This document shows, piece after piece, positions 1,487-63,231 of a DNA stretch of 64,000 nt. The position numbers and the translations under genes are program-made. This stretch comes from a virus: positions 28,953 to 92,952 of IMG/VR virus record IMGVR_UViG_3300050035_000086; one strand, written 5' to 3'. The notes below the pieces were generated by a model. The model was not told where the DNA came from, made no database searches, and saw nothing but the letters and a program-made list of their open reading frames with translations. Numbering within the stretch: the first letter of the stretch is position 1; every line of letters starts with the position of its first letter.

Positions 1487-1502
1487 CCGAAAAATCCAGA
1501 TA

Positions 1503-1883
1503 ATGGACAAAATGAAACCTTTCTACGGAAATATCGAAGATTTAACAACTCGAAATTCCAACTTCAGGAAAGTACTTTTCACGGGGAAGCTCCAACTGGT
1601 TCTGATGTCCCTGAAGCCAGAAGAAGAAATCGGCGAAGAGAAACATCCCTCCGATCAGTTCTTCCGTGTCGAGCAAGGAACTGCGGTCTTCGTCCTGAAC
1701 AAGGAAGATGTATTTATTGCCCGAGACGGAGATTCTGTAGTAGTCCCCGGTGGCTCGTACCACAACGTAATCAACAAATCCAAGACCTCTACTTTGAAAT
1801 TATACACGATATACTCCTCTCCCGAACACCCTAGTAAAGAGATTAAGAAAACCAAGAAAGAAGCAGAGGCCGCTGAGAAATAA
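1503..1883 (+). CDS. Cupin domain protein
   Basis: NFRKVLFTG.LQLVLMSL....IGEEKH..DQFFRVEQG and VVVPGGSYHNVIN...LKLYTIYS.PEH. Start at 1503 or 1512. Confidence 0.85.
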   Translation: MDKMKPFYGNIEDLTTRNSNFRKVLFTGKLQLVLMSLKPEEEIGEEKHPSDQFFRVEQGTAVFVLNKEDVFIARDGDSVVVPGGSYHNVINKSKTSTLKLYTIYSSPEHPSKEIKKTKKEAEAAEK

Positions 1884-4800: not shown

Positions 4801-5542
4801 CCTTTCCACCAACGGAACATTGATTTATTTGCTTACCGCAGATAATCAATTTGTAGAGCTTAACCCGCACTCCGGAGTGAGTCAGCTTGGAAACCCAATT
4901 GGTGACAAGCTGCAAACATGGGACCCATCTCTCGCCTATGTCACTTGGCATGTCAGCGGATCGAGAGACCAAGCCCTATATGTTTCAGATGGCTCTACGG
5001 GGTGGTATAGACTTATGACCACACCTAGTCCAGAAACTGGACAAACTTGGTGCCCCTTCGCCACTATTCAGGGAGGAGCTAAGGCCGTCCAATCTGTTGA
5101 AGTATCTCCCGGAGTAACTAAACTGCTAGTGGGTCCTACAACTTCCGGACCCATTTTGCAACGAGACTACTCGGTAAACACAGACAACGGAACGGCGTAT
5201 CCGGCATTTGGAACTCTGGGAAGTATAGTTCTAGCGCACCCAGGTCAACTTGCAGAATTGGTATTTGTCACTTTGGATAGCACTGCGGTTGGCTCACATC
5301 CCACCGTTAGTACTCTGATTGATGAGATATCGGGAACTTTCGAATCTATGCCTTCTTATGTTCCGGACCCAACACAACTTCCAGCAAGTACCACGCTCTA
5401 CGGAGACAGATTCTACTTCTCTCAAACTCAACAACCTGCTATTTGTCGCCATCTCATGCTGAAATTTTCGTGGCCTGCTGAAAACTACGCAAATGAACTT
5501 TTAGCAATGACTATCTTTGGCGGTCCTACGGAGGAGTTGTAA
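1883..5542 (+). CDS. Tail nozzle / DNA-stabilisation protein with inserted carbohydrate-binding repeats and PA14-like domain
   Basis: 1219 aa, beta-rich. N- and C-terminal propeller-like segments (RRPG, NNLYFGNG, RLFAS.GN.VYWS). Central W..N..Y repeats and a PA14-like GNYT..V.KDG...GTYPIEIDY segment. Podovirus synteny. Confidence 0.6.
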   Translation: MANQFQLNGSTSGKQTRYTGLWNASWTSGIWTNRSPLREGPVTRMEARYIGARNDCFWDGSNIEISQRLTPVRRPGQTQYNTSTFSAINCFYEFRLFNTNTETIKVMADTAGTLFDATGPSGQIAVWSKSAGAGQTYMQYVANNLYFGNGVDLKKWVQNPVGWLASNKYTVDEMQTFVIDSNGNLEQLTQCIIPVVSIGIASNVLTVTFDRNVTNYLTTGLNINFRGLTVATFLNGYDPKNQVITISNVSGTTVQAPFVYNNYATTADSGTCYVVEGGTPYSGGTVPVWNTALMGTTTDNVCLWVNRGTPLENFGIVGPTQQTMSFTVNTNSNSWADNTYYSILDSIIDNNGNLQKVTTSGKSGYYGSGSFPTWSTTLGGTTADGTVVWTVVQLGLWNPSAPNVTTWLPNHTYTNGALITATPTGGSPSVFQLQGFAEAQISGAVTAYLYPGTGSGAVTQFNHSFPLSTGSALGSATGNSFLFDPASTSVFGANPIQWATLNSSGTTTGYTTPFPTHTNTYELVVLGNIVFPEAGNYTISIVHKDGMFWGMGNSATVISGPSNDPRNNTVTAVQGYPVFGGTNTNASGVDLTEDFVINIPTAGTYPIEIDYAYWYHSGQTLVLTVNGVNPVPGTISTLRTSGPTAPTWPAFSSAYAPGYALANETSGQLVWANIGLVTDFSWTTKTYYLTNSSAGIIDSNSYSEIPYESGTTTTLAPTFVKTFNGITSDNPNLIWLNTGKASIVAAGNLSTSAGGWQYCIALVNTLTDTVSNAGPVTTITGSFVGASGVHLSGGLPDVSVIDPQVDYVAIFRTKDGGGTYYLIPPTYNQNTVYTLPLSEYLANGYTDTTLDADLNFLISPALSYENTPPGNVGTGTQGMINFTYHLSRLFASTGNIVYWSTGPDTTVGNGNEAWSPSNSFTFPSLVKRIVSTSIGALIFTVSDVYLIAGKATSSSPLFPTPYIPGLGLLSYNALSTNGTLIYLLTADNQFVELNPHSGVSQLGNPIGDKLQTWDPSLAYVTWHVSGSRDQALYVSDGSTGWYRLMTTPSPETGQTWCPFATIQGGAKAVQSVEVSPGVTKLLVGPTTSGPILQRDYSVNTDNGTAYPAFGTLGSIVLAHPGQLAELVFVTLDSTAVGSHPTVSTLIDEISGTFESMPSYVPDPTQLPASTTLYGDRFYFSQTQQPAICRHLMLKFSWPAENYANELLAMTIFGGPTEEL

Positions 5543-7897: not shown

Positions 7898-8302
7898 ATG
7901 GATCTTATGTTTGTGCGTCCGGCTAAACTGGGAGATGAGACGAAATTTTTGGACTGGTCTGTAGAAAATCCAGATAATGGATTTGATCCAGAGGTTGCTA
8001 AATCTCCGTCTACATTCGTTCTATGTGCTTACGACAAAACGGGAGCAGTAGCTTACCAGCCGGTCCAGCAAGTATTCATGATGGACTCCTACGCGGGCCG
8101 TCCCGGAAATACTAAGTTGCAAACAGCGGTGGCTATGAAGGAATTGTTCCAGGAGACGGTTACCCAAGCACACATAAAAGGCGTGTCCGAAATTTACTAC
8201 CTCGGGACAGAGGTAGGAACCGATGCAATGACTACCAAGCATGTTTTTGAAGAGCTTCCATACAAGGTTTTTCGCGTGAAAGTTGCTAGTCTAGAGGGCT
8301 AA
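7898..8302 (+). CDS. GNAT-like protein preceding the ejection genes
   Basis: VRPAKLGD start and GNAT-like secondary-structure pattern. Position typical of podovirus tail/ejection modules. Confidence 0.45.
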   Translation: MDLMFVRPAKLGDETKFLDWSVENPDNGFDPEVAKSPSTFVLCAYDKTGAVAYQPVQQVFMMDSYAGRPGNTKLQTAVAMKELFQETVTQAHIKGVSEIYYLGTEVGTDAMTTKHVFEELPYKVFRVKVASLEG

Positions 8303-9196
8303 ATGAAGATCAACACATTTTTGGAATTCGTTTGGAGTTCCCGGCAAAATCGATACATACTTGTCCGCAATCAGTCCATTACCTGGACTGGTGGGGTTGC
8401 TCTGTGTAAAGCAGAGGGGCCTAGCTCTGAACAACAAGGAATAGCCTCCTCCCAACAATCTTTCTACAACACGCTACAAAAAGACTACGGAACACAGTTC
8501 GCAAACCAGAGTAATATTTTGAATGCTCTGAACAAATCTTTGTCCCCCATTATAAATGCAGGAGTCGGTCAGTATGGGTTTGGAAATGCTGAGGACGCGG
8601 CAATGCGTACTCAGTCAACTTCGGGAACCGCGAGCGCCTACAGAAGTGCGAAACAGGCGTCTGGGGAAGCGCAAGCAGCGCAAGGCGGAGGAGATACTTT
8701 TATCGGCTCTGGTGTCAAAGCGCAGACAAACGCGCAACTAGCCAATTCTGCCGCTTCTACTGAAGCAAATCAGCAACTAGGAATTACGCAACAGGGGTAC
8801 CAAACCGGAAGATCAAATTATTTCAACGCAGTCAATCAGGAACAAAATGTAGCTAATGCTTATAACCCCTCCGCGTACGGCCAGATGGCGAACTCGGCGG
8901 GATCTGCGGCGTATGGGTCGGCCTCAAACAATCAACAACTAAAAGCCGCAGCAGACGCTGCAAATAATCCTTGGGGACTCGTCGGGGGAGTAGCTGGTGG
9001 CATCGCGGGCTCTTTCGTAGGGATGCCGGGGGCTGGATACGCTCTTGGGTCTTCCTTGGGGGGTGGTTTAAGTGGTGCAACTTCTTCGGGGGGAAACTCT
9101 GGCGGTCTTGCTGGTGGGTTTGGTAATCTAGATACCACAGGAGGATCAACTTTCATGGAGCAGTTGAAGAATTTCGGATCGGGCCTGGGCAGATAA
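8303..9196 (+). CDS. DNA ejection / pilot protein
   Basis: N-terminal ...WTGGVALCK motif, Gln/Ala/Asn-rich helical body, Gly-rich hydrophobic C-terminus. Confidence 0.6.
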   Translation: MKINTFLEFVWSSRQNRYILVRNQSITWTGGVALCKAEGPSSEQQGIASSQQSFYNTLQKDYGTQFANQSNILNALNKSLSPIINAGVGQYGFGNAEDAAMRTQSTSGTASAYRSAKQASGEAQAAQGGGDTFIGSGVKAQTNAQLANSAASTEANQQLGITQQGYQTGRSNYFNAVNQEQNVANAYNPSAYGQMANSAGSAAYGSASNNQQLKAAADAANNPWGLVGGVAGGIAGSFVGMPGAGYALGSSLGGGLSGATSSGGNSGGLAGGFGNLDTTGGSTFMEQLKNFGSGLGR

Positions 9197-11260: not shown

Positions 11261-14200
11261 ATGTCTAACTCAGTAGACCTTAGTGGAATCTGGGGGCAAA
11301 CAACCGCCTCCACAGAAACTAATGCTCCTGCTCCTCCAAGCGCTGTCGATTTAAGCAGCATTTGGGGGGCGCAAAAATCATCTCCAGTTGCCCCCACTTC
11401 AACTCCCGGGGCCGCCGACCTCAGCAGCATATGGGGTGGAGGTTCTGCGCGTCCAGATAATGGACAACCTGCCCAACCTATTCAGCATGTTTACCAAGAC
11501 CCAAATCAAAGTTGGTATAAAAGGGCCTGGGACTTCGCACAGACACCGATCACGGAAAGTCTCTTCGGAATGCCAGAAGAAAGAGAAGGGGCTGGTGGCC
11601 TTGAGCGCGGTATAGAACACATTGCATCTGGGTTTACGAGTCCCCTCTCGCTCGCGCTGACCGCTGCCACCTTCGGCACTGGGTCTTTGATCGAAAGCGC
11701 CGGAGCAACTGCCCTCAAAGAAGCCGGACTCTCTACTGCCGAAATTGCAGATGCTGTCAAAGGCTCCCAAGCGGCTCTAGGTGCTCTCAAGGAAGCGAAG
11801 TCAGTGGACCCAGTCATTCAACAAGCTCTGGAAGCGGGAGGGCACGATCTGGGTCTTCTGGATCGGGCTAGGAAACTCGTGTCTCCGTTAAATCGAGACG
11901 CGGAGTTCGGTTCGTCTGCAATTCAGAACGCCCTAAAGGAATCTGGAAAATTCTCCCCAGAAGAACTAGAAGCTCTGGGTAAGGCCGGAGACGCAGTCGC
12001 CGAAGCCAAGGCTGGATTCCACCCAGTTGAAGACGCCGTACGCGAAACAGGCGCAGATGTAGACGTTTGGAAGCGCGCGCAGAAAGCCCTATACGATAAT
12101 GGCCTGACTGAGCAGGACCTATTGTCTAAAAATATGCTCGAAAACGGGGCCTTCCAAGTCCTGCGTCACACGATCCCGGATCTACCTGTCGCTGCTACTG
12201 CTCGAATGGCCAAGACTGCGAATGCTGTTTTGAATGCCGGATTTACCCTCCAGCAGTTTGAAACAGCAGCGGCTATGTCTCCCCGATTCCTCGACGCTCT
12301 CAAAGAAGGGGACACCGATAAAGCTTGGGAGTACGGAACAGAAGCCTTTGCAGGCGGTGCTTTGGGAATCCTCGGGACGCCTCACGCTCTTCACGCAGCG
12401 GGAGAACTGTTCAAACCGCTTCTGGAGACCGACAAGTTCAGACCCAACGACGAGTTTTTGGCAATGGACCGGGCTAACAAGGAACGTGAAGTTCAACATG
12501 CAGTCGGAGAACAAGAATCCATCAATTTGGATAGCCGCGTTCGGAAAATTCTCGGACACGAAACTCCCGGCTTTAAGGATAAGGTATTTGGCCCAAATGC
12601 TGATGTAAAATCACAGAAAGAACTTGAACTAGCTTCTGTGTTTCATCAGGTGGTCACCGGAGGAGACGCTGAAAAAGCGGCTGTTTGGCACGACGCTCTT
12701 GCGGAGGCATTGGGCAAAGACGAGCGCTTGACGAAGAGTCCAGATAATGGACAGTATGGTCCAGCTAATGAAGCCGATGAGTGGGATCAGCTTGAAAACG
12801 AGGTTCATTCTCGAACTGGAAAGGACCCGGCGGACGTTTCTTATGCCGAGTTACAGAAAGCAGGAGTATCTCCAGAACTACTAAACAACTGGGATAAGTA
12901 CACAAAGAGAAACCCGTTTTCAGCCGACACCCCAGAATTGTCTAAATATGCTCGCACACAGACTCTCTCAGGAATCGGAACCGCTAATCCTGTTTTACTT
13001 CTCAACGACTACGCTCACGAACTACTCACCCGTGTTTGTATGAACACTCGGAACTGGTACGGAGCTGAGTTTAACACAGAAGATGTTGGGAAACTGGTGT
13101 CCGCTCTTCGAGAAGAGGCACAAAAAGGAGACAGAGGAAACCTCTCGGTACTTGCGAACGAACTAGAAAAAGCCGCGTCGGGGGGTAGGTCTGTGGTCGC
13201 CGTTAAGAAAATCGGTGGTCTCGCGCAGACATCTACCATTGCTCACGAGCAGACACACGTCTGGCAGACTAAATATCCTCTGACCCCGGAGCAACTGAAG
13301 CCGGTACTCGGTGATCCTCTGTACCGAGATGCCCTAAACGATTTGTACCGCAAAGGATATAAGTCGGATACAGATACGCTTCCAGATGAAATCCTGTCTC
13401 ATCTATCCACTGATGATCGACTTGGGTTATCAAAAACAGAAGCAAAGGACTTGACAAAGAAGTTCTTGTCGTTGTATCCTAAAGAAGCAATATCGGAATT
13501 CCCGAACAGAAATGAAACCACTCTAAATGCCCTGAAGGAGCTAGGATACGATGAGAATATTAACCAGACCGCAAATCGAGGAATACTTTACCAAACGTCA
13601 CGAGTCTTCGGAAACGGAGCGGGGTCTCCGCACCCCTACCTCCCCGACAACATCCGAGAACTCATCGCCGACAACAACTTCAAAGCACTCCCCGATAGCT
13701 ATAAAGCCACTGTCTTAGCCTCTTTAAAGAGAGTTGCTAACGGAGAACTATCTGACCGGGAGCTTGAAGCAGCCAAAGCTCTGAGAGACGAGCAGGCTCG
13801 CAATTTCCAAATAGGATCGTCCAACGATCTTCTGCACTCGTTCGTCCAAGACTACATGACCCGTACCTACAAGGACCTGAATCCAGACGGTAAGGTTGTT
13901 GCGTCCGAAGCCAAGCAGGGTAAGTTCGCTACGAACGTCACGATGGCTCGTCAGCGCGTATATGACTCTCACCTAACCGCCCTTCTGAAATCTCCAAAGC
14001 CAATCGACTTTGATCCGGTGTCTGTAACAGCTAAAGGACGCGGAGAACTCATCAAAGCAGCGGCAAACAAACAGTTGATTGACACTCTCCGCGATCAGTT
14101 CACTCGCGGCTCAGACGGTCGTCCTGCGGTAGTTCTCTCAGGACAAGGCCAAGTTGTGTCTGGACAAAATGGGGAAGACCCTAAAACTTTCATCGACCCA

Positions 14201-17320: not shown

Positions 17321-17341
17321 TGTGTCCATTATCTGGACCGT

Positions 17342-25487: not shown

Positions 25488-25488
25488 T

Positions 25489-46445: not shown

Positions 46446-46476
46446 AGGCGATCTCCTTTGTCCAGATAATGGACGG

Positions 46477-47242: not shown

Positions 47243-48598
47243 TCAGAACTCAGCGGGTAGTGGCACATCTTTAGCCTCCTTCAAAAGCTCCTTCAGTGTT
47301 CCTGCCTTCTTGGCCTCTTCGAGGAGGGCAAGAGCTTCAGTCCAGTCCTTGACAGTCAGATTCTTTGATGGCTGTCCGACCTTGTTCGCGCGGAGCAGCA
47401 TGTAGTCTCCAATAGACTTGATGTCGGCTCCTGGTTCTGGAAGAGCACGAGTTCGGGCAATGAAGGCATTCTTTTGCTCTCCATCCGGTATCTTACTATA
47501 CTCAGGAGGATCTGGCAAGCCTTTTTCTGCGGCTTCTTCCGTGGTCATGTTTACAACACCATCAACGAACTCCTCCGCTTTTTGCTTATTATCTGCTTCG
47601 TCAAACTCGGTCTGTGGAAGAGAGGCGTTAGCGATATCCTCGTCGGTTATCCCGCCTTCGGATGCAACATCTCGTCCATTATTCGGACTCTCCTTCTTCG
47701 GACGACCTCCACGCTTCTTTGCGGGAGGGGGAAGCTCGGCGGCGGGTTTGAGTCCCGAAACTGCGGCAAGAACCACTTCCTTCACCGTGGCCTTGACTTC
47801 GGCCTCTGGCTTGATTTCTGGAGTTTCCTTCGGAACCTCTACTTCGACTACTGGGTGAACAGTCACCTTCTCGTTCGGCCTTGGGGCGTCGGTCGGAACG
47901 GCTGGCGTCTGATTTACTTGAGGGACGGCTGGAGGTAGAGGAACTACAGACGCGGGGGTAACCCTCTCTGGCAGGATTTCTTCAACTTCATTCTTCAGTT
48001 CTTCGGCGAGGTACAAATGTCCAGCTTCTTCACTAAAGGCGCGACGAAACCCGTCTGCTTCCGCGCATTTTTGTGTCATTTCTGGGCTTCGTTTGGACCA
48101 AATCTCATTTAGGGAGAGGACTTTCTTTCCGTTAACCTCTTTCTCCCTGAAAGCAGCTACAGCTTCAAATCGGGTCATCCCAATGATGGGTTCGTCAAAA
48201 TCCTTACGCTTGATCGCGACACGTACAGCCCACGGCTCCCGAGGCAATAACTTGTTCTCCTTGTCTGGGAGAGGAATATGGGAGATAATAGTAGGCAGAC
48301 CCTCTTCGTCCAAGTAGATGAACTCCGCAGGAGATTGTCCGGCATACACTCCTGTTCTTTGGGCGATCAAACGAAGGGCACCAATCGTTGTGATCCAATA
48401 TGGTTTCTTAATGTACCGATACGAACGAGTGTCTTCGTCCCATTCTTTGGCATTTCTCAACTGGAATACAAGGTGCGGTCCGGGGCGTAGATTTCTTGCC
48501 TCAGCTTCCGCGATAAATAAATCGAACTGAGTATCTGTGGCTCCCTTGGCATACTCGGCACGGAATGCTTTGAGTTCTTCTGTCGTAAATTTACTCAT
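47243..48598 (-). CDS. RecT/Bet-family single-strand annealing protein
   Basis: GATDTQFDLF.....RNL.P, IGALRLIAQRTG.YAG, W...PEM..KCAEA..FRRAF; long Pro-rich tail. Confidence 0.85.
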   Translation of the reverse strand: MSKFTTEELKAFRAEYAKGATDTQFDLFIAEAEARNLRPGPHLVFQLRNAKEWDEDTRSYRYIKKPYWITTIGALRLIAQRTGVYAGQSPAEFIYLDEEGLPTIISHIPLPDKENKLLPREPWAVRVAIKRKDFDEPIIGMTRFEAVAAFREKEVNGKKVLSLNEIWSKRSPEMTQKCAEADGFRRAFSEEAGHLYLAEELKNEVEEILPERVTPASVVPLPPAVPQVNQTPAVPTDAPRPNEKVTVHPVVEVEVPKETPEIKPEAEVKATVKEVVLAAVSGLKPAAELPPPAKKRGGRPKKESPNNGRDVASEGGITDEDIANASLPQTEFDEADNKQKAEEFVDGVVNMTTEEAAEKGLPDPPEYSKIPDGEQKNAFIARTRALPEPGADIKSIGDYMLLRANKVGQPSKNLTVKDWTEALALLEEAKKAGTLKELLKEAKDVPLPAEF

Positions 48599-49339: not shown

Positions 49340-49370
49340 GTCCATTATCTGGACTAAGAGTATTATAGCA
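49340..49370 (-). promoter_or_regulatory. Extended -10 promoter with the 15-bp motif at the predicted +1
   Basis: TGCTATAAT at 49370-49362; exact motif at 49354-49340; then TAGGAG RBS. Confidence 0.55.
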
Positions 49371-49619: not shown

Positions 49620-50549
49620 CTACCTCCCCATCACCTTAGTACACTTAAACAGCAAACCTGTTAAGCTCGCATAGGCTGTTCCATCTGCGAACGAAGCGTT
49701 TCCCACGCCAACCAAACACGCCGCGAGACCGTCTGCTCTTGGTCCGGGTTCTGAGTCGAGCAGCGCCCATCTCAGCTTAGCAGAAACTACAGCTACCATC
49801 GCCCGGTAGTCGGCGGTCTTGATTTGCTTCAAAAGAGAAGCTGTTTTAGTCCAGTTTCCGGACAGTACTGCTTTGGCGACTTCCGGGTAGAGAGGCTCGT
49901 GTTCGCTTCCGTGGATTGCTTCTTCGAGAGGGACCCCGGACAAATACTGATCCAAGACTCCTAAGATTTCTCGCGGGGCGTTTACTTGCTTGTCGTGCAG
50001 GAACTTGAGGACGTTAGAACCCTCTTCGGCGGACACGTTTCCCGCTAGAGCCTTGACTACCAGCTTGGCCCGGTCTGCGTCTGAGAGGGGCTTTAATTCG
50101 AAGGTAGCTGCTGCCGCTCGGCTCTTGATGGCAGGTTCTACCTTTTCAGGTTTGTCCGTGGTCAAAATCCAGAGCGCCGGATTCTTCTCCATCGGGTCTT
50201 TGAGAGCATTCTGCGCTGCGATTGTCACTTGGTGAAATTCGTTCAGAATTATGACCCGGCGTCGTCCGGAAAATGGACGAGACGAGGAGATTTCAGCCAG
50301 TGACCGAGCGAAGTCCACCCCGTTGTCTGTTGAGGCGTTGATCTCGTGCAGACCGTCTCCTTCTGCTCCTGCGAGTTGCGCGACGATCAGAGCCAGAGTG
50401 GTCTTACCCGTGCCCGGAGGTCCATAGAACAGGAAGACGTTGGGCCAGTTATCCTTCTCTGCGAAGGACCTGATGGCCTTCTTGGCCGCTTCCTGCCCCA
50501 ACACATCTTCCAATTTCTGGGGTCGAAGTTCTAGAGCTAGTTGACCCAT
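49620..50549 (-). CDS. dnaX: DNA polymerase III gamma/tau-like clamp loader AAA+ subunit
   Basis: LRPQKLEDVLGQ, FYGPPGTGKTT, EINAS..NGVD, IILNEFH...AQNAL, IKSR. Confidence 0.85.
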   Translation of the reverse strand: MGQLALELRPQKLEDVLGQEAAKKAIRSFAEKDNWPNVFLFYGPPGTGKTTLALIVAQLAGAEGDGLHEINASTDNGVDFARSLAEISSSRPFSGRRRVIILNEFHQVTIAAQNALKDPMEKNPALWILTTDKPEKVEPAIKSRAAAATFELKPLSDADRAKLVVKALAGNVSAEEGSNVLKFLHDKQVNAPREILGVLDQYLSGVPLEEAIHGSEHEPLYPEVAKAVLSGNWTKTASLLKQIKTADYRAMVAVVSAKLRWALLDSEPGPRADGLAACLVGVGNASFADGTAYASLTGLLFKCTKVMGR

Positions 50550-52375: not shown

Positions 52376-53647
52376 TCTTCCTCCTCCACGGTCCATTTAG
52401 TGGACAAAAGTTCCTCTATGTAAAACCCGAACGGCTCTGGATTTTCTCTTTCACTGTTTAGAAGCATACCCTCGTCGTCCATTACGGCCACGAACCCGTA
52501 CTCGGACACGAGCTTCTTCTTGGGAGTCATTCTTTTCGCCGCATCAATGATGTTCATTCTTCTCCTTCTTCTACAACAGTATTATAGCACGACTTGCAGA
52601 GCAGCAGTCCATTATTCGGATCGAACAACTCGTCAGTCAGGTCTCCGCACCCATCGCAGTACTCATCTTCCAGTTCCGGCCCGTCGTCCGGGCTTAGGAG
52701 GCCGCAGTACTCCGGTTCGCTTTCGCTCTTGTATTCTCGTTTGCTGGTAGCGCCCATAGCCCCCCTAAGTGAACATGTACAGAGAATCATATTCTCCGCT
52801 GTACAAAACTCCACAGCGATGGAGTTCGATTAGCTCGTCTTCGGTTGCGACGGCGAGAAGGCTGTCGGGACTCGTGTCCAAATAGATTTCGTCGTATCCG
52901 GCGTCCGATACAATGTCAGAGTTTCCCGGAACTAGCTTGTCCAGTAGCAGGAAAGCATGAAGATCCGGGCGGTTGGACAGCTTGTGCGTAACACGGTTAA
53001 ATTTGAGAAACTCGTCTTCGTGTTCCTCGTAGAAGCTTTCTAAGTCGGTAATCATATCTTCCTCCGTCCAGATAATGGACTACTCGCTCCTTAGAGCGGC
53101 TCTGTCTTTTTGGTCAATGTGTTCGATGAACTGGGGAGTAGCTCCGCGTTGGAGCAAGTCCTCGGTCTCGTACTTCTTTTTGTCCAAAAGGCGTTTCTCC
53201 AAGCGTTTTACCTTGCGTTGGAGCTTCTCGATTTCCTTTTGCTGCTTGGTGATTATTTCGGCGTCTGTCAAGCTGGTTTCAGCGGTCCTGGTCCGCCGCC
53301 TCCTTCAATGAAGTCTTTGTAAATAGTCCACGTCAGAAACCCAAATGCAAAGATACAGAACACCAAAGACAACCAAGGGGCGTTCAGAAGGCCGAAGGCG
53401 ACTCCGAATACGAAACAGACATAACCCATTACGCGAGATTCAAGAGAGGTCATTCCTCCTCCTCGGGTGTCAATTCGTTCGTATAGTCTTGCAGCAAGTC
53501 CCAGATGTGCGCTCTGATTCCCTGCTGCCGGATAGCTTGGTTAATGCTTTCGTTTCCGAAGTCGGTATCCGGCTCGGATTCGTAGGCTTCCATGATTTCG
53601 TCTACTAAGGTTTCAATGTCCATTTCTCTCCTTGTCCATTATCTGGA

Positions 53648-54046
53648 CTAGTCCCACAAATCTCCGTACCATTTTGCAAACAAGTGGAGGCCCTTATTTT
53701 GGGTTTTGGTAAGTTCTTTGAGTTGACCCCTGTTTTCATACTTAGCGTCGGCTATGGACCGAGAAGCGAAGAATCCCACTTGAATTTCAGTAAGAATCTT
53801 GTTCCACTCTTCTTCAGTAATGCTCATCGGGATAGAGTGGGTATGATACTTGAGGTGGCCAATTGCTTCTGGAAGGACCTCATTCAAGTAGTCATACAAA
53901 CTCCAGGTATCGCAGTTCGCCCACCCGCGAAGACCTCTCTGGACGAAATACTTCACAGCGTAGCAGTAGGTCTTGGGACTGAGGTACTGTTTCCACCAAG
54001 GCCAGCAGAACGTTCGGTATTCGGGCTTCAAACCAAAGTAGGGCAT
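53648..54046 (-). CDS. Conserved phage hypothetical protein
   Basis: DTWSL..YL...L...I..L...EEW..IL.EI...F...GL.LFAKWY..LWD. Confidence 0.65.
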   Translation of the reverse strand: MPYFGLKPEYRTFCWPWWKQYLSPKTYCYAVKYFVQRGLRGWANCDTWSLYDYLNEVLPEAIGHLKYHTHSIPMSITEEEWNKILTEIQVGFFASRSIADAKYENRGQLKELTKTQNKGLHLFAKWYGDLWD

Positions 54047-54260
54047 TTCATTCTCCTATCCATTAGCTGGACTAAATTTAAACCTCTTACTGTCAAACCC
54101 CTGCCAGTCGAAACCAAACGGACCTGGACCAAGGTGAATTGACAGACCGAACAGCCCAATGGTAACACCCCTGGAAATTCGACTGACAAATATTCCGTTC
54201 CGTCGAACCAAAGGATGCTGAACCCAGGCTGAAATTTTCATTTGTTCCTCCAATGTTGTC

Positions 54261-54297: not shown

Positions 54298-56520
54298 TCA
54301 ATCTTTTTTATATTCTTTTGCCTCATATCCAGCCGCTTTTAGAGGTATGCCGTCGGGCATCCAAGACGGTTTCTTCGTCATGCACTCACACAGCTTCGCT
54401 ACGGTTAGAGGCGAGTTCTCGGGAACCAAAGTGATAAGCTCATCGTAGGTACTTCCAATAATCTCGAACCCCGCTTGGTCGGCCTCGTGCATCCCGCTAA
54501 CCAGGATGTCTCTCGCCCACGACTGGTCGGCATTTTCAAAGATTTTCCCCCCGTGCGTCGGAACTCTTCCCCAATGGGTGGAATTTTGCTCCTTGCCATA
54601 GTAGGAGATTTTCTCGCTGGTTATTTCTTTTCCATTCCAGACATACTTCTCTTCCTCCAGGGTCGGGTCCAGATAATGGATACTCCGCCCACTCGGGAGC
54701 TTGAGTTCCAAGACCTTGGCTCCGTGGCAAAGAAAAGACACGACGGGATCATATATTTTACGACCTTTTTCGGCAAACCACTCTTCTTCTCTTTTGGTAT
54801 GCGGGACCCCTACCCCGAACAGCTTACCGGGGTTCTTGATGGCGCGTCTTGCCGCCCGTTCCATGTCCTTCCAGGTCCGGGGTATCTCTGGATACACAGA
54901 ACGGAAAATATCGATGGCTTTGACTGCTTCTTCTCGGGTCATCACGACGCCCATCGTGCGCGCGTAGGCCAACAACCCTGTCCATACTTTGTTTCCACCT
55001 CCCATAACAGAGCCACACTCCGGGCAAAGGGGAGGCAGGGGTTGCTTGTAGTTCTTCTTGAGTCCACACCGGGAGCACTCCCACTCGTAGAATTCGTCTC
55101 CGGCTCCTAGCCCAAACCCAGAGCCAAGGGTGGCAGGTTTGCACATAGTCCGTTTGGCTTTGTTTCCGCGCCCTTCATCATACTCAGCTTCCAGTTCTGC
55201 ATACGTCATTTTGTAGAAGTGCTGTCCAAAATCGAGGTAAGGGTCTCGTCCTTCCCGGAAAACACGAAGTACGGGGTCGCTGTGAGCGATAAAACCGGCT
55301 CCAACGTTTTCGATTGCCGAGAGATCAGCCGTCACCAGCTTCATTCCCTCGGGGGCACGAAACGCGGCGCGAACTGTCGAACCAACTACGTCAAGTGGCT
55401 TTCCAAACTCCTTCAAAATGGAATCATAGTCAGCGGAGCGGACCAACTCGATGGCTCGCTGCATATTTTTCTCGACATACTTTACCGGCTTCGGAAGATT
55501 TCCCATGTTGACGCCGTGCGCAGCCCAGCGGCCCGTCCTTGCTGCTCCCATGAAGGTGTACTGGTGCCGCAGTCTCCCGTCCGCGCTCACCATGTCCGCG
55601 ATGTTGGTGTACTTCCGTACGGCGGACTTAGATGTTTGTCCACGCAGTAGTAGGGCTTCTTTCGCTTCCTCGGTGAGGTCACATTCGCCGGACATTGCCC
55701 GGGCCACGAAAGGTTTACCAAGCGAAGAGAACCCGTAATTATGCTCCCGAAGCCAAGGCAAAATCTGGCTAACAGAATTTGGATTGTCTAAACCGGTGAG
55801 TTCTTTGAGGCGGGCGGTGAGTCGTTCCATCTCCTTTTGGGTGATGAATTTTCCACCGTTGACCAGAGGCATGTCAACGCTCCAGCCGGTTTCGTTGATC
55901 TTCTGGTCCAAAAACCACGCCTCCCATTCCTGGTCGGGCAGGGGAAAGTCCTTCAGCTTCTTTACGGCAATAGTTCTTTCAGCTTCTGTGTCTCGTATGC
56001 CATACTTACAAAACAAGGCCCAGTCCTCTGGGTCTGTGTTCCAGTCTCGGTAAGAGGCGGCGCTGAGGCCAAACAACGTGTCGTTCCCCCCGAAAGTTTC
56101 GGGGGAGCAGAACTTCTTGATGAGACGTTTTCCTTCTTTTAGTTTAGCTTCTGATTCTTTAAGCCCTAAAATTTGACCGGCTTCGTCTAGTCCTCCGGGC
56201 AAGGACAGGTAGCGCGCGCGGACCATCGAGCAGCGCCACTCGTTGATTGGTTTGTGGATTCCCAGAAAACGACGTGCTGCATTCCTCTCGAATTGCGCAC
56301 CCCAGGCGTTGGCAATCACAAACGGGTCCATCAAAGCCTCGACCAATTCAGTGGGGGGCTTAGGGTCCAAATGAGGTTGCCATAAATGGACACGCCCATT
56401 ATCGATGGCGTGCTGGCTCATGATAAGTTCAGTAGAAGGGTCATCAAAATAATTAGCGAGGCCGACAACTTCCAAGTCAGCCTCGCTTCGAGTCTCCACG
56501 TCCCAATGTAGTTCTGTCAT
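54298..56520 (-). CDS. polA: Family A DNA polymerase with 3'-5' exonuclease
   Basis: DVETRS, AQFER, YGIRD (exonuclease); GAARTGRWA, ADLSAIE (A), R..CK...LG.GFG (B), FENADQ..ARD, YDEL (C). Confidence 0.92.
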   Translation of the reverse strand: MTELHWDVETRSEADLEVVGLANYFDDPSTELIMSQHAIDNGRVHLWQPHLDPKPPTELVEALMDPFVIANAWGAQFERNAARRFLGIHKPINEWRCSMVRARYLSLPGGLDEAGQILGLKESEAKLKEGKRLIKKFCSPETFGGNDTLFGLSAASYRDWNTDPEDWALFCKYGIRDTEAERTIAVKKLKDFPLPDQEWEAWFLDQKINETGWSVDMPLVNGGKFITQKEMERLTARLKELTGLDNPNSVSQILPWLREHNYGFSSLGKPFVARAMSGECDLTEEAKEALLLRGQTSKSAVRKYTNIADMVSADGRLRHQYTFMGAARTGRWAAHGVNMGNLPKPVKYVEKNMQRAIELVRSADYDSILKEFGKPLDVVGSTVRAAFRAPEGMKLVTADLSAIENVGAGFIAHSDPVLRVFREGRDPYLDFGQHFYKMTYAELEAEYDEGRGNKAKRTMCKPATLGSGFGLGAGDEFYEWECSRCGLKKNYKQPLPPLCPECGSVMGGGNKVWTGLLAYARTMGVVMTREEAVKAIDIFRSVYPEIPRTWKDMERAARRAIKNPGKLFGVGVPHTKREEEWFAEKGRKIYDPVVSFLCHGAKVLELKLPSGRSIHYLDPTLEEEKYVWNGKEITSEKISYYGKEQNSTHWGRVPTHGGKIFENADQSWARDILVSGMHEADQAGFEIIGSTYDELITLVPENSPLTVAKLCECMTKKPSWMPDGIPLKAAGYEAKEYKKD

Positions 56521-56535
56521 CTTTTCCTTTGTCCA

Positions 56536-56904
56536 TTATTCGGACGGTTTTTCCAAAATCACGGAAGCGTAATAGTTTCCTTCTTTGACGACAACGGGCC
56601 GGTCTTTGAGAATTTCTCGGACGGCCTCAGCGCGCTCGGGGTAATTCTTATCCCAAAGTCCCGAGTCAATGTCCAAAACTACGCTTACCCACTTGACGGG
56701 TTTTTGAGTCGTGGGCGGAACTAGAGGATCGTCAATCGCGGAGAAGTTGAGCGAGTAATAGGATTTTCCACCTAGAGCAAAAGCAATGTCATCCAAATAT
56801 CCGTAGTGAGTTCCCAGATCGTGTACCGAACGTCCCTCGTAGTCTCCTTCGGTGGTTACGTGCCACCAGCCTAATGCTTTATACTGCTTACGGCTTCCGC
56901 TCAT
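56536..56904 (-). CDS. Hypothetical protein
   Basis: AAGGAG RBS; WHVTTEGD.EGRS..DLG...G..DDIAFAL motif. Confidence 0.6.
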   Translation of the reverse strand: MSGSRKQYKALGWWHVTTEGDYEGRSVHDLGTHYGYLDDIAFALGGKSYYSLNFSAIDDPLVPPTTQKPVKWVSVVLDIDSGLWDKNYPERAEAVREILKDRPVVVKEGNYYASVILEKPSE

Positions 56905-57712: not shown

Positions 57713-58149
57713 TCATACTTCTTCTCCTAGTCTTTCCAGCAACTCACGAGCGTCTGCCAGAGCGCGGCAAGACGTGCAGTAGCTTGTGGAATCTTCGGTG
57801 TGGTCTATTTCCAACTCCGCAGACAGAGCGCGGACGGCCTTGACTACTTCCTCGTAGTCCAGATAATGGACGAACGGCCCCTGCGGGTCTTGAAACAGGA
57901 TGTTCGCGCCTCGGTCTGTGTATCGGGTGGTCATATATCTTCTCCCAGATCAACGAGGGCCTTTTCCATGCGCCTTTTGTAGGCCGGGTGTTCTCCCCAG
58001 CGATCGAGGTCTAGGATGGCTTCTCGAAGAGTGACGACCAACTTCGCGTAGTCCGAATAGTGGACAAACTCTCCTTCGGGGTCTTCGCACATTTCGGGAT
58101 TACCGTCTACGTAGTAGGGGTTGGGGATCTCTGTGTACCGTTTGGTCAT
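57713..58149 (-). other. Two tandem paralogous small ORFs (57931-58149, 57713-57934)
   Basis: Both start MT.RYT and share DP.G.FVHY.DY...V..LR. Confidence 0.7.
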
Positions 58150-59526
58150 TGTTCCTCCCTTGCTCGTTTTCTGTACTGGTCCAGAGAGGCGAGCACCCGG
58201 GGTTCAAGAAAGATCACGTTGTCCGCTTCTAGTTGCTCATGGTGGCCGGTCGTGAGCATAATGCTCCCGTCTTCTTCGGCGGTCGCGTAGGCCCCGTCCC
58301 CGAGATATTGTGGTCCGATCATACGCCCTCCTCATCTTCAGCAGTTGTAGGAACGCGCTCCTTGTATCGGGCTATCCACTTTCGACCAGACACTATCGCT
58401 TCATGTTTGCGATCTGCATCCACTCCTTCTACGGCCAGAGCCGTCACACATTTGGTGATTGCTTTCACCGCTGATGCCAATTCTCGATTGCGATTGGTCA
58501 GCGCCATGATAAGATCGTCAATCAACCCTTGGTCAAATTCACCCATCTCTCCTCCTAAACCTGGAACATCTGTCTGTACTCGAAGTAGTCTTTCGCATCC
58601 GCCGTGAAACGTTCTTCGACTGACCCCGGACGTTTGTCTGCGAAGACATACCAAGAGTGCATGTGTCGAATTCCGCGCGCGCTCTTGGCCATCTGATTGC
58701 AGAACTCGTTTACGAAGATCAGGAGTTTGGTTTCGTTGTCCATTATTTGGATTCCTCCGGTTCTGCCTGTCTTCCTGTTGGGTTTCCGTTTGCATCAAAG
58801 CAGCTAAACAGATGTGTGGGAAGATGTACATACTTCCCAGTTGGCTGCGGGTCGATATGGACCTTGGACTTGTTCTTCTCAATTGGTTCTCGGCAGTATT
58901 TGCAGATCACAGCGCCTCCTCTACGGTCTTGCGTTGATTGCTTCGTTCTTGTGCAGAAAGTTTCCGATCACATCTACTGCTGGGAGGTCTTCCTCAAAGA
59001 TCAGTGATCCGGGGTAAAGCGGAGCACCCCCTTTTAGGTGGTTGTATATGTCGGTGAGCAAGGCGATGACCTCGTTAAGTTGCAGCTTAGCCTGAAAAAG
59101 CTGGTCAAGGTGCGAGACGTATCCATCTCCTGGCCTCGACTTCTCCCAAACTTCATCCCAAATTGGGTGTCCCGGCTTAATTCCGTTTACCATTACTCCT
59201 CCTCAAAACTACAACTACTTTACCACGTTGGTGCTGTTGTCGTTATCGCGAGAGTGCCTAAGGGTTGAGGGCGGAATACGCCGTTGACGTGCACTGATCC
59301 AGTAACCTTGTCGCTTCTTCTTGAGATAGGTCATAAGCACGCGAGAAAGATCGTATTACTTCCAGCGCCTTTTCAAGCTGGCCGACGCGCTCTTCAAGGT
59401 AGCGATTTCGCGCCAACGCTGCGTCAAGCGTTCCTTTAAGGCTTACGTCGGCAATGCGATTTAGATTTGTCATTCCGATCCTTTCATAAGGCACTGTAGT
59501 GCCAGCGTTTGTGTTCCTTATCTGGA

Positions 59527-60651
59527 CTACACACAGTCTACCACGTTGTCTGGCGTTTGTCCAGAGGATTCAAGAATTTTTCGGACACGGTCTTGCTGTC
59601 CAGCTGTGATGGCTGAGTAGTATTTCTCAACAGTCTGACACGAATCTCCGATCAGCTTAGACACGTCAAACAGCGAAGCGCCGCGCGCTAGGAGAGAACA
59701 CACGAGCGTTGTGCGAAGTTTATGCGGGAAGCAATCCTCAACTCCGGCACACTTCCCCAACCGGGCAAGCATCTTGTACAACCGCGCCCGAGTTAGGCCA
59801 CCAAGGATAGGGAGGTTGGAGTTCTTATCCGCCGGGACTGCGCTGGCTAACCTAAGCAGCAATTCTCCGTGTAGCGGAATTTGCACCCAGGTCCGTCTCT
59901 TTTTTGTCTGCCAAGTCAGCGTCTTCGTTGTCCAGTTAATGGACGACCACGTTACCGCTGCCGCGTCCGATCCACGCATACCCGTCCAGCGGAGCAGAGC
60001 AAAGGGTAGCTGGTCCTCATCTGTTAGGCAGGATTCTAGGCGTTCCATTTCTTCCGGGGTAAACGGAACCGCGTCCGGCTTCTTCTCTTCAGTCTTGTGC
60101 TTGATCTTTAGGGGCGACTGTCTGATGAGTCCTTCTCCCTGGGCGAAGTTGAAGACCGACTGGAGCACTGTGTAATCGGTCTGGATTCCTTTTCCGTTTC
60201 CGCCGCGCTTGAGTATGTCCTCTTTTCGCTGGACCAGATAATCTTCGACTCTTGCAGAGGAAATATCCCCCAGAGTTTTTACGTCGTGGTTCGCGAGGTA
60301 CTGGAAGAACATGGTGGCAGTTCCGGCATACAGGTCCCGGCTGCGCTCAGCCAGTTCTCCCAACTTGACTCGGCGGTCCAACTTGTCGGTGAATGCTGTT
60401 TCAAATTCGGACAATTCAGGACTGGGTTTGATGCCTCGGTTCGCCGTGAGGATTTCCCACGAGGCTTTTGGAAGCACCGTCTTGAGCGTGTGCCAGTGGT
60501 TTGACTCAGGACCCTCGGCTAGAGCGGCCCCGATCTGGCGAGAGAGGGTCCGAGCCGCTTGGGGAAGACGAGTCCCAAGAGAAAATCGGAGGCGTTTGCC
60601 CCCGACAGTCTCCGAGAAAGTGTATACTTTTCCGCGTTTAACGATTGTCAA
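59527..60651 (-). CDS. int: Tyrosine recombinase / integrase
   Basis: LLRWTGMRGSD, QTKK, PHKLRTT, VSKLIGDS...VEKYY; N-terminal arm-like segment and SAM-like core. Confidence 0.88.
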   Translation of the reverse strand: MTIVKRGKVYTFSETVGGKRLRFSLGTRLPQAARTLSRQIGAALAEGPESNHWHTLKTVLPKASWEILTANRGIKPSPELSEFETAFTDKLDRRVKLGELAERSRDLYAGTATMFFQYLANHDVKTLGDISSARVEDYLVQRKEDILKRGGNGKGIQTDYTVLQSVFNFAQGEGLIRQSPLKIKHKTEEKKPDAVPFTPEEMERLESCLTDEDQLPFALLRWTGMRGSDAAAVTWSSINWTTKTLTWQTKKRRTWVQIPLHGELLLRLASAVPADKNSNLPILGGLTRARLYKMLARLGKCAGVEDCFPHKLRTTLVCSLLARGASLFDVSKLIGDSCQTVEKYYSAITAGQQDRVRKILESSGQTPDNVVDCV

Positions 60652-63231
60652 CTTCTGCTCCTAAACCCCTCCGGTCGAGTTCGCTATACACTAGCTCACA
60701 CCATGAACCGAAGTTTATTCCGTTGTAGTCCCAGCCATCGTCGTCGATGTTATGCAGGAGAGCTACCCAAGTTTTGACCAATGCAGCATCGTCTAGCCCG
60801 TCCACGATCTTGGCCGCATTCTCCCATTTGCTGTGCGATAGGAGCGTCATTGTTTCCTCCTTGATTAATCTTTCCAAAGTTTCTTGATGAGGGAGTTGAT
60901 CTCCCCTTCGTTCAGGGGAGAAACTTCATCGAAGATTGGAGCATCTGTTGAAAGGTGGTGGTAGTTCCCATACTTGGGCCGAATCTCTTCCTGGAACAAA
61001 CGAAGAGAGTGAACGATGGTGTGTATCTCTGCTTTGGACAGCTTCATGTCTCCTCCTTGGTTAGTCCATTATCTGGACAGGTGCGTAATCCATCCGAAGG
61101 CAGCTAGCGTCAGAACAAAACCCCAGGCCGCAGCCCCAATTAACACAAGTTTAAACAACAAGTTCCAGAGGTTTTCGCGACGCCAGATTACGGACATAAA
61201 CAACAGGATACTTGTCGAAACCGCCAGATACATAGTCATTTCTTCCTCGCTTTCTTCTCCGCTGCTGTAGAGGCTTCTTGCGTCGTGGCTGTGAGCATTA
61301 AGCAAACGCCCTCGCGGAATTTTCCTCTTCCAATTTCAATCAGCAGGTAGCCGCTCCAGTAGTCTACTAATTCGTTGGTGGTCATTTCGGATAAGGGTTT
61401 CATCTGGCCCCCTTCTTGGCTTTCTTCTCCGCACGTTTCGCCGCTACAGCTTTCAGCACGGCGAGATTGTAAATCGAAGCGGGGGAAATGTCAAACGCTA
61501 CGCGCATTCCTTTGAGTCTTACCTTGACTCCGTATGGAGAGAACTCCATCATCACGGGTCTCAGCCGCCCACGCTCACGTACCGCGTCCGAGAATTCAAC
61601 CGATAGCCTCGTTTTGCGTTTGTCAAGCGCGGTCATTTGCACCCTCGGATAAGCAGGATCGTCACGAGAACCAAACCCCAAAAGAGGATACCCAGGATCA
61701 GGCCGTTTAGGATTCCGATAGCGGCGTCCATTGGGTTCTCGTGCTCCTCGACAGGCACGTACAGCGGGCTTCTGTCTGGGTCCCGGAAGCGGTCGTAGAC
61801 TTCGTTGGTGATACGTTCGGTGTCGGTCATTCTCTCTCCCCGTGTTGGTTGGGCATACTCAGGTTCCCAGTTTGGAGGTATCTCTCCAAGGCAGACCCGG
61901 AGCAGCGGACTCCGCAGAATATCACAGCACCCTCTCGCTTAGCAACCACCGGGTCATACGGAAGAAACGACAGCGCCGTGAGGTTTCCAGACGAGCGGCG
62001 GGAGGCCACAGTCGGGACCGCCAGAGAGTAGGCTCGTCCAGACAGAGGCCGGTGGCAGATTTTACAGTTCACTCGGCCTCCAATTCTTCAGAGTCGTAAG
62101 GCACGATCTCGTGGTTGCAAACCGGGCAGCGGTCGTCGCAAGCGCAGGACCATTCGTCGGACCAATCGGCAGCGGGTTCTTTGTCCGCGTATGGTGTGTC
62201 CTCATGGTCGCAGTGGTAGTGGTTGATAAAGCCTGTCTCGAAAGAACTCATTTTGTCCTCCTTCACTCCAATCAGTAGTAGCTCATCCGCACCATGCTTT
62301 CGCTGAGGGTCTGGAGTATGCGGACTTGGGGCAGGTTCGCCCCGTTGGTTAGTGGGTGCGCCGGTCAGGAAAAGGAACTTCAATCGTCTTTCCCCGGCTT
62401 TCGTTATGCCATTCTCCGATAGCCTTGCGGTTGGCTTTGTTCCGGAGGTTGGCCGCGTCCTTGACTGCTTGGCGTTGCCTCTTCTGTTCTGGTGAAGCCT
62501 GAGCGCGAAAGTCCGAAGTCAAGCTGTTTTCCTGCGCTGCTGGTTTCATGTTTCTTCTTTTAGAGCTTCTTGTGCTCTCTTAGCCGCTCGGCCTCTTTTA
62601 CCGCCTCCTATGCGGGGCGTTGGACCTGTCTCCGTTTCCTCAAGTTCGTCTATTGGCGAACTGCATTGTCAGTACGCGGAGAGACCATTTTCGGAAGCGG
62701 CTAAGGCAGCACACGCCGCCCGTCCATTATTCGGACCGTCTGGTTACGCCTTAAGTGTCACGTCCGGGTTCTCCAGGTACGACCGTGACACGGCGATCTT
62801 GGCTTGCAGTTGAACGCGTCGTTCGTTGCTGATTGCCTGAGTCAGTTCCAACTCAGCAGCCTCAATTTCAGACTTGAAAAACTCGGGAGTGTAGCGTGGT
62901 CCGTTCATTGTGCTCTCGTTTCTGTCCACTAGCTGGACTTGTTGAACTACAATCAGTGTAAACCAGTTTGGCTCGGAAGTCAAACTATTTCTGAAAAGTG
63001 TTTCCGACCGCACCCGCACCGATCAGAAACGCAGAGCGTGTGCTTTGACTTCTGACAGGCCGCGCAGATAAACGCGGGTTTCGGTTCCGCCGTGAGGACT
63101 TTTGCTTTGCCCCTAATCACGTCAGACAACGATCTGGCAGACAGAGAACGGGCAGAGGTCCGGCTTATGCGAGAGGGTACGCGGCTGTAGGCTTGGACTA
63201 GCATGTTACCGCTTCCCGCCACTCGGGCCAT
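60638..63231 (-). other. Cluster of small early hypothetical ORFs
   Basis: Closely packed 60-100 aa ORFs with GGAG RBSs. Confidence 0.5.

Follow-up and report, generated by a model that had tools for sequence, protein, structure and literature searches.

A dispersed 15-bp dyad word in a clade of probable Acidobacteriota phages: conservation in place and possible recognition as duplex DNA

A 64,000-nucleotide stretch of a contig from an uncultured peat-soil phage, bases 28953-92952 of the 92,952-bp IMG/VR record IMGVR_UViG_3300050035_000086 (G000; estimated completeness 86%), contains dozens of dispersed copies of a 15-base word, GTCCAGATAATGGAC, in which inverted arms GTCC and GGAC enclose an A/T-rich core. 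"The window" refers to this whole stretch. The sites are genuine and under selection. Relatives keep them in place, within a lineage they co-evolve, their orientation makes no difference, and the word is a specific feature of the phage. We put at about even odds (roughly 0.5) the reading that a sequence-specific protein from the non-structural arm of the clade recognizes the 15-mer in double-stranded DNA; both the binding of a protein to the sites and the effect of that binding are what we infer from the patterns described below.

Abundance, conservation and placement of the sites

The window holds 16 exact copies of GTCCAGATAATGGAC, and none was found in 100 dinucleotide shuffles. Allowing up to two mismatches gives 44 copies (16 exact, 11 with one mismatch and 17 with two), and at up to three mismatches there are 58 matches against 1.5 expected. 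The whole contig has 24 exact copies and 59 at up to two mismatches, and each genome of roughly 93-110 kb carries 59-68 dispersed sites, or one site per ~1.5 kb. The distance between the arms is fixed: GTCC-N7-GGAC occurs 53 times in G000, where ~2 are expected, and the other spacings from N2 to N12 occur 0-5 times; per genome the word is found 25-56 times against ~2 expected, with the remaining spacings at background. The arms are near invariant, and copies lie both in and between open reading frames (ORFs). Over 258 sites the core reads RRNWAAT, with AAT almost invariant and A or G at position 5; the symmetric core ATTNAAT was not seen among them, and the core is always asymmetric. A recurring variant, GTCCATTATTCGGAC, is the reverse complement of GTCCGAATAATGGAC. 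No strong conservation beyond the 15 bases and no -35 partner was found, and the flanks have weak mirror-symmetric preferences, with Y-W preceding the site and W-R following it (350 sites, seven genomes).

These counts bear on an earlier note on this DNA, made from the sequence without database searches. Its 16 exact copies were all confirmed, its total of about 45 fits the 44 copies at up to two mismatches, and its estimate that two thirds are co-oriented with transcription agrees with 29 such copies in the window and 15 opposed ones. It had counted five copies in the first 17 kb, where seven are present at up to two mismatches (window 1-17.3 kb); the interval from 1.6 to 7.9 kb, described there as empty, is nearly so, with a palindromic variant at 5028. 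The comparison it had proposed with a codon-preserving shuffle leaves the enrichment intact, since 16-20 copies are observed in 56 confident coding sequences and 0.3-1.1 after synonymous-codon shuffling (maximum 2-4).

The word is shared by a clade of related phages, which the earlier note had suggested searching. An exact-match scan of IMG/VR returned many contigs with several copies, and more than 30 independently assembled contigs from different samples contain the word. Five relatives with full sequence share 65-82% nucleotide identity with G000 over 5.5-34 kb and carry 13-35 copies each (at most one mismatch). Among 49 relatives identified by their portal proteins, all those at 59% identity or more carry GTCC-N7-GGAC (1.4-7.5 per 10 kb), except two short contigs; one subclade has TTCCAGATAATGGAA in its place, with 46 core copies in its 91.9-kb genome. 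The word is absent from portal relatives at 57% identity or less. What these motif-less relatives have in common with G000 is the structural module alone; the non-structural arm is missing from them entirely, and it is this arm that the motif accompanies. No other dispersed word was found in them, an apparent one in contig L169 being a tandem repeat. The nearest cultured phage is Tunturiibacter phage Tunturi_3, a 97.6-kb podovirus with a portal identity of 31%, the same two-arm layout and an integrase; neither this word nor any other abundant dispersed word was found in it. Annotated phage relatives were recovered neither by megablast nor with the 242-residue protein described below, and the portal search returned Tunturi_3 alone.

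Across 401 Acidobacteriota genomes, neither the degenerate word nor a reversed control exceeds three copies in any one genome, so the word is a trait of the phage and not the host-genome signature that the earlier note had named as a refuting outcome. One genome of this set, G059, is marked as unpublished, and the conclusion is independent of it. The RtcB RNA ligase of the phage is 65-75% identical to proteins from Terracidiphilus and Acidobacteriaceae genomes, and the host is therefore probably an acidobacterium.

Sites are retained in position and orientation between relatives. Between G000 and G001 (82% identical), 16 of the 18 alignable sites are kept and the other two retain GTCC..TGGAC; six of eight are kept in G002 (~67% identity). 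Copies that oppose transcription are conserved in place in all 10 alignable cases between G000 and G001. Over all genome pairs, conservation of the motif columns exceeds that of the flanks for co-oriented copies (0.81 vs 0.69) and for opposed copies (0.79 vs 0.73). The bases themselves change by lineage: AGATAAT in G000 corresponds at orthologous sites to GAATAAT in G002, G003 and G005 and to AGGTAAT in G004, and GTCC..GGAC in G000 corresponds to TTCC..GGAA in G415, where the end pair G..C has become T..A. Because orthologous sites bear the consensus of their own lineage, they have been rewritten in place and in concert. One orthologous site has a flipped orientation. Left of the window there are sites at G000 contig positions 18917, 19821 and 20129, and the G002 orthologue of the one at 18917 is flipped. 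Concerted rewriting in place is what a co-evolving reader would predict, and concerted drift of sites is also reported for repressor-stoperator pairs (PMC6550527). In RtcB the residues V-Q-I-M-D are coded GTC CAG ATA ATG GAC, bacterial homologues have x-x-I-M-D with ATC for Ile, and the gene is present in none of six sequenced relatives. This shows the creation of a site within a gene whose other known homologues are bacterial.

The genes are arranged in two arms. Those up to window ~17.3 kb are on the + strand and encode tail and other virion proteins, with terminase and portal further left on the contig, outside the window; those from ~17.3 kb to the right end are on the - strand and include replication, nucleotide metabolism and many small genes. 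For 40% of sites a called gene boundary is no more than 30 nt away (15% expected), and 31% stand 8-14 nt before a start codon led by a Shine-Dalgarno sequence (SD), or provide its ATG, in either orientation (9% expected). SD-adjacent sites sometimes fall within the last codons of the upstream gene, and the embedded TAATG doubles as a stop/start junction. Site density in long genes is roughly half the average, and no gap exceeds 4.4 kb. The sites are spaced more evenly than expected at random, at ~1.4-1.6 kb, with a coefficient of variation of 0.52-0.78 in six of seven genomes; the closest two sites are at least 150 bp apart, and sites are single and never clustered. Blocks of homology between relatives end at a site edge nine times in G000 against 1.9 by chance, with similar results in other genomes.

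Across six genomes, 153 sites run with transcription and 90 against it (63%), the share in G002 being 78%. By our estimate, the A>T skew of coding strands predicts 65-71% co-orientation for a word with six A and three T. Since this is about the observed bias, base composition accounts for it, and we rejected orientation as evidence for a strand-specific role.

Recognition as duplex DNA and alternative explanations

Because both orientations are conserved, the arms have neither covariation nor stem extension, the flanks are symmetric and the core is asymmetric, we favor recognition of the duplex by a phage-encoded protein. The earlier note had likewise proposed recognition of double-stranded DNA, and this is the part of its interpretation that stands as the best reading. 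Positions 5 and 11 across 350 sites are A-T in 176 cases, G-T in 155 and G-C in five, with no compensation, and at the same sites the four arm pairs do not covary and the stem is not extended. Positions 0 and 16 pair less than chance (83 vs 109±8) despite mirror-symmetric base preferences; unpaired symmetry of this sort is in keeping with a protein that makes two equivalent contacts on the duplex. The A-C mismatches that the earlier note had placed in the transcript at 27887 and 37853 are also correct, both sites being GTCCGGATAATGGAC on the + strand in a region transcribed from the - strand.

A mechanism can be proposed on this basis. The two 4-bp arms, GTCC and GGAC, would face one side of the helix, since their centers are 11 bp apart. 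The symmetric flanks (Y-W before, W-R after) would be the mark of two equivalent contacts, and the A/T-rich core RRNWAAT would be read asymmetrically or be required for its shape. Single sites about every 1.5 kb, preferentially at cistron boundaries, could then act on transcription genome-wide, as roadblock or silencing points comparable to mycobacteriophage stoperators, with an effect independent of orientation. A silenced, lysogenic state is conceivable because a tyrosine recombinase is conserved in the clade.

Several observations weigh against duplex docking of this kind. An always-asymmetric core is unlike the target of a plain homodimer, and the dimer of the earlier note is doubtful in its simple form, RRNWAAT being asymmetric throughout and ATTNAAT never seen. 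Stoperators are strongly oriented, unlike the mixed orientations reported above. About half of the sites lie deep inside genes, and weaker coding constraint at gene boundaries may be the sole cause of the preference for them. No fixed distance to TGnTAnAAT (sigma70-like) promoters was found, four sites lying 6-8 nt past a -10 box and the others being scattered. No DNA-binding regulator or helix-turn-helix repressor was detected in ~90 proteins scanned with Pfam, PHROGs and NCBIfam, a set that leaves many small ORFs unscanned on a contig 86% complete. The cultured relative Tunturi_3 grows lytically (PMC11924767), and a portal query found no related prophage in the 401 Acidobacteriota genomes.

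The same scans identified a sigma factor, nucleases and replication proteins only. The motif-linked arm encodes a sigma-70 family factor, a sliding clamp, a clamp loader, a primase-helicase, PolA, RecT, a PD-(D/E)XK nuclease, several HNH/EndoVII-type nucleases, a tyrosine recombinase and clade-specific proteins without domains. Of the two "HTH proteins" in the earlier note, 20262-21737 is a DNA-repair exonuclease (PHROG 704) and 24975-25487 is the sigma-70 family factor; its statement that no obvious repressor lies in the window stands, and the tyrosine recombinase was found in addition. Pfam showed no DNA-binding domain in ten ORFs that neighbor the recombinase gene of G002, a complete relative. 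Three genes are of particular concern here:

26221..26949, - strand: 242-residue clade-only protein without a recognized domain, candidate reader; its 177 homologues all belong to the clade
24975..25487, - strand: sigma-70 family factor (regions 2 and 4), candidate reader; travels with the motif
59527..60651, - strand: tyrosine recombinase of the Phage_integrase family, Xer-like; shared with G002, G004 and G415

The 242-residue protein is present in motif-bearing genomes and absent from motif-less relatives. In the search for the reader, profile searches of the PDB were empty and a protein atlas returned viral hypothetical proteins only. A model of the 242-residue protein built from six orthologues had a predicted local distance difference test score (pLDDT) of 56, which is inadequate for searching by fold. 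None of the scanned proteins had a ParB-like domain, and a match of the 242-residue protein to a partition protein was non-significant (E = 0.018). Because the tyrosine recombinase is conserved, the phage may be temperate or plasmid-like, though its cultured relative is lytic.

The 15-mer could instead act as a folded single strand, either as an RNA hairpin (5-bp stem, G-A-U-A-A loop) read by a phage RNA-binding protein for antitermination, mRNA processing or translation control by the SD, or as a DNA hairpin exposed in replication. We regard this as rather unlikely. The word does fold into a 5-bp stem and pentaloop (-5.5 kcal/mol as RNA, -3.1 kcal/mol as DNA), an A-to-G change at position 5 preserves a G-U pair on the forward strand, the second loop position is the most variable, as in GNRA-like loops, the end pair has gone from G-C to T-A on both sides in one subclade, and many copies abut an SD. 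However, the 37% of copies that oppose transcription are better conserved than their flanks, and these would have a UUAUC loop and, in the G5 variants, an A-C mismatch; the four stem pairs do not covary in 350 sites, the stem is not extended, pairing beside it is below chance, a hairpin gives no reason for flanks that are symmetric yet unpaired, and a scan of the window matched no Rfam family. A mark for replication or DNA processing, to which we likewise give a low probability, would be a start site for the T7-gp4-like primase-helicase or a site-specific nick made by a conserved HNH/EndoVII-type nuclease, and nicks may load the sliding clamp, one use of which could be late transcription of the T4 type together with the phage sigma factor. 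The even ~1.4-1.6 kb spacing without clustering is near the size of Okazaki fragments, each outer edge of the site bears GTC (the T7 primase trinucleotide), the arm to which the motif is linked encodes the primase-helicase, clamp, clamp loader and sigma factor as well as three conserved HNH/EndoVII proteins, and the orientation bias switches where the gene arms meet. Known primase sites, though, are 3-5 nt and not 15, the halved density in long genes and the 4.4 kb gap fit gene boundaries better than even coverage, the 63% orientation bias is about what A>T skew predicts, and the 134-residue HNH protein has a homologue in motif-less relatives. Contig ends, taken as a proxy for nicks, are not at sites either (1 of 58 within 30 bp vs 0.9 expected), which is a weak test. 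With similarly modest expectation, the array may be a self-mark, an evenly spaced barcode that the phage writes into its own chromosome, including newly acquired genes such as RtcB. The reader would then be a clade-specific protein or one of the conserved HNH nucleases, telling phage from host DNA in order to spare the phage's DNA from its own nucleases or to load the clamp that drives late transcription and replication, and there would be no classical repressor-operator system.

The remaining explanations are less probable still. The sites resemble recombinase core sites in their 4-7-4 geometry with an asymmetric center, and as recombination junctions they would be minimal core-type sites for the conserved tyrosine recombinase or microhomology for the exchange of modules between related phages; their position at gene boundaries and the homology blocks that end at a motif edge (9 vs 1.9 in G000) agree with this. 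We consider it improbable, as known recombinases bind arms much longer than 4-5 bp, 60 active sites in both orientations would scramble a genome that is collinear between G000 and G001 with its sites kept, many sites are deep within conserved genes, and block ends at sites are also expected of conserved islands beside variable DNA. A -10-type promoter element with a GATAAT center, read by the phage sigma factor as T4 late promoters are by gp55, is very improbable: the sigma-70 family gene adjoins the clamp gene, GATAAT is at the center of the word and many copies are 8-14 nt before a start codon, but 37% point the wrong way, about half are deep in genes, the would-be -11 A (motif position 7) is the most variable base, with G in the majority of G004 copies, the flanks have no conserved element, -35-like or otherwise, and the structural genes have ordinary TGnTAnAAT promoters. 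That the word has no function, being an assembly artefact, a by-product of composition or a host signature, has a negligible chance. Artefact and host signature are excluded by the independently assembled contigs from different samples (more than 30), by dinucleotide shuffles, reversed patterns and codon shuffles that all come out near zero, and by the lack of enrichment in the 401 Acidobacteriota genomes.

Comparison with known dispersed arrays

A search of the available literature with the 15-mer gave chance matches only. This agrees, for the sequence, with the description of the system as undescribed in the earlier note; the kind, however, is known from Cluster O dyad repeats and Cluster A stoperators. 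Like the Cluster A stoperators (L5 gp71, Bxb1 gp69; PMC6550527), the sites in G000 number in the dozens, are single and short, occur in both arms at ~1 per 1.5-2 kb with many in tiny intergenic gaps, and have a lineage-specific consensus that drifts in concert in phages with a recombinase gene. Stoperators differ in being 13 bp long, fully asymmetric and nearly all co-oriented, whereas the G000 sites have dyad arms and both orientations (the 153 with and 90 against transcription, six genomes). In addition, about half of the G000 sites are deep in genes, no repressor was found (~90 proteins scanned), the host phylum is another one (probably Acidobacteriota), and there is no sequence similarity.

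The 17-bp dyad repeat of Cluster O phages, TGTTCGGNNNCCGAACA, is also present in more than 30 copies per genome between, near the ends of and inside ORFs, and has invariant inverted arms around a short center with some strand asymmetry (Cresawn et al., 2015; PMC4351075). Its function is unknown (PMC4351075). Cluster O repeats have 7-bp arms and a 3-bp center, unlike the 4-5 bp arms and asymmetric 5-7 bp core described here, and both sequence and phage group are unrelated; the two are of the same kind without being homologues. The concerted lineage drift and the co-occurrence with the replication arm shown for the G000 clade go beyond the Cluster O case.

Two further systems bear comparison. 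The C1 operators of phage P1 are an asymmetric word scattered in ~17-20 copies over a genome of ~94 kb, each overlapping a promoter, and P1 encodes a tyrosine recombinase; the scattered asymmetric word and the recombinase are alike, but there are ~60 sites here with no fixed promoter geometry. The boxB element of lambda and P22 is 15 nt long with a 5-bp stem and a pentaloop of the G-A-N-A-A type, and is present once or twice per genome in the transcript sense only. It is similar in size and loop type and differs in that both orientations are conserved here and the stem does not covary. Dispersed words at even intervals occur in several phage groups that are not related to one another, and to our knowledge Cluster A is the only one of these arrays for which reader and function are known. 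The array is of a recognizable and mostly unexplained kind, and its sequence, dyad arms and indifference to orientation set the G000 clade apart from stoperators.

The search for a reader protein is tractable because of the comparative material. The genomes, from peat and soil, are numerous and diverged, their sites hold their positions, core and end pair are rewritten by lineage, and the boundary is clear, relatives with the structural module only having no sites; a distant cultured relative and a host genus, Tunturiibacter, are also available. Naming the reader would reveal how phages in a large Acidobacteriota-infecting group control or mark their genomes, and arrays of this type may find a more general explanation.

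Individual sites and neighboring genes

The sites are listed below in window coordinates; exact sites read GTCCAGATAATGGAC, and the - strand is the coding strand from ~17.3 kb onwards.

1494..1508, +: ATCCAGATAATGGAC, one mismatch; inside ORF 1347-1883; kept in G001
5028..5042, +: weak palindromic variant GTCCAGAAACTGGAC; inside 1219-residue ORF
7968..7982, +: ATCCAGATAATGGAT, both end bases altered (A..T); intragenic
8374..8388, -: GTCCAGGTAATGGAC; against transcription, intragenic
11451..11465, +: exact; in 1696-residue ORF, reads P-D-N-G; G002 orthologue GAATAAT
12738..12752, +: exact; in 1696-residue ORF, same frame as at 11451 (P-D-N-G)
16360..16374, -: GTCCAGATAATGGAT; against transcription, 16 nt into ORF 16344-17273
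17324..17338, -: exact; convergence point of the two gene arms; G001 homology stops at site edge
18284..18298, +: GTCCGAATAATGGAC; against transcription, intragenic; kept in G001
20248..20262, -: exact; between exonuclease and DHH phosphoesterase genes; overlaps upstream stop codon, abuts next SD
21917..21931, +: GTCCAGATAACGGAC; against transcription, intragenic
22898..22912, +: exact; against transcription; last codons of EndoVII-like gene; abuts SD of next gene
24280..24294, -: exact; last codons of 105-residue gene; abuts SD of next gene
25686..25700, +: TTCCAGATAATGGAT; against transcription, in HNH gene
26500..26514, -: exact; in gene of 242-residue clade-specific protein (V-Q-I-M-D); G003 and G005 orthologues GAATAAT
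27447..27461, -: exact; in sliding-clamp gene
27887..27901, +: GTCCGGATAATGGAC; against transcription, in clamp gene
32332..32346, -: exact; 8 nt downstream of TGATATAAT -10 box; abuts SD
32551..32565, -: GTCCAGATAGTGGAC; intragenic; identical in G002
33027..33041, -: ATCCAGATAACGGAC; followed by SD; junction of DUF1376 part and conserved 210-residue part in ORF 32356-33534
33605..33619, -: GTCCGGATAATGGAT; intergenic; covers -35 position of TAGTATAAT promoter
34121..34135, -: GTCCAGATAATGGAA; ATG of site may be SD-led start codon
35816..35830, -: GTCCAGGTAATGGAT; in PD-(D/E)XK nuclease gene
37853..37867, +: GTCCGGATAATGGAC; against transcription, intragenic
39525..39539, -: GTCCAGATAATGGAA; provides TAATG stop/start junction
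39791..39805, -: GTCCGAATAATGGAC; ATG of site is start codon, SD just upstream
42646..42660, +: GTTCAGAAAATGGAC; against transcription; abuts SD
43805..43819, -: exact; in RtcB (V-Q-I-M-D)
46460..46474, +: exact; against transcription, intergenic; abuts SD; G004 orthologue AGGTAAT
47674..47688, -: GTCCGAATAATGGAC; in RecT-family ORF; identical in G002
49340..49354, -: exact; 7 nt downstream of TGCTATAAT -10 box; followed by SD
50264..50278, +: GTCCGGAAAATGGAC; against transcription, in clamp-loader gene
53066..53080, +: exact; against transcription, intergenic; abuts SD
53634..53648, -: exact; intergenic; abuts SD
54058..54072, -: GTCCAGCTAATGGAT; abuts SD
54667..54681, +: GTCCAGATAATGGAT; against transcription, in PolA gene
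56531..56545, -: GTCCGAATAATGGAC; intergenic; abuts SD
57857..57871, +: exact; against transcription, in small ORF
58738..58752, -: ATCCAAATAATGGAC; ATG of site is start codon, SD upstream
59513..59527, -: degenerate site GTCCAGATAAGGAAC; just downstream of recombinase gene
59930..59944, +: GTCCAGTTAATGGAC; against transcription, in recombinase gene; identical in G004
61064..61078, -: exact; intergenic; 16 nt before SD-led ATG
62722..62736, -: GTCCGAATAATGGAC; intergenic
62924..62938, -: GTCCAGCTAGTGGAC

Some of the surrounding genes have features of their own. The ORF at 32356-33534 (-) consists of a DUF1376 N-terminal part and a 210-residue part that is a separate gene in all relatives, and a motif copy followed by an SD stands exactly at the junction (33027). 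RtcB adjoins a NUMOD3/DUF559 homing-type endonuclease (42896-44900, -), and neither gene is present in the six sequenced relatives. The 65-75% identity of RtcB to Acidobacteriota proteins suggests that it was acquired recently and points to the host. The cluster at 24592-28028 (-) comprises a MazG-like protein (identified by eye), the sigma-70 family factor, an HNH nuclease, the 242-residue protein and the sliding clamp, and is reminiscent of the sigma-plus-clamp set for late transcription in T4. The 1696-residue protein was considered as an N4-like virion RNA polymerase with hairpin promoters; this was rejected, as neither PHROG nor PDB gave a match to the protein and it lacks a DxDGD motif.

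A UvrD-like helicase is encoded in two pieces, at 38416-39249 and 41252-42328 (-), which correspond to N-terminal and C-terminal domains. The ~2 kb between them contain an HNH endonuclease gene (40344-40895) and small ORFs, and the arrangement may represent a split gene, an intron or an intein-type insertion. At 17911-18643 (-) a protein with a dATP/dGTP diphosphohydrolase N-domain (MazZ-like) adjoins a weak nucleoside 2-deoxyribosyltransferase-like protein, a pair that hints at a modified DNA base. A Cys-rich protein of 195 residues (18818-19405, -) has, by eye, an N-terminal zinc-finger-like motif and a C-terminal HNH motif; it has no Pfam match and is conserved in G002, G005 and G415. The window closes with 11.6 tandem copies of a 27-bp unit (63688-64000, 91% match), which extend past the end of the contig and probably brought the assembly to a halt; they may be origin iterons or a repeat within a coding sequence.

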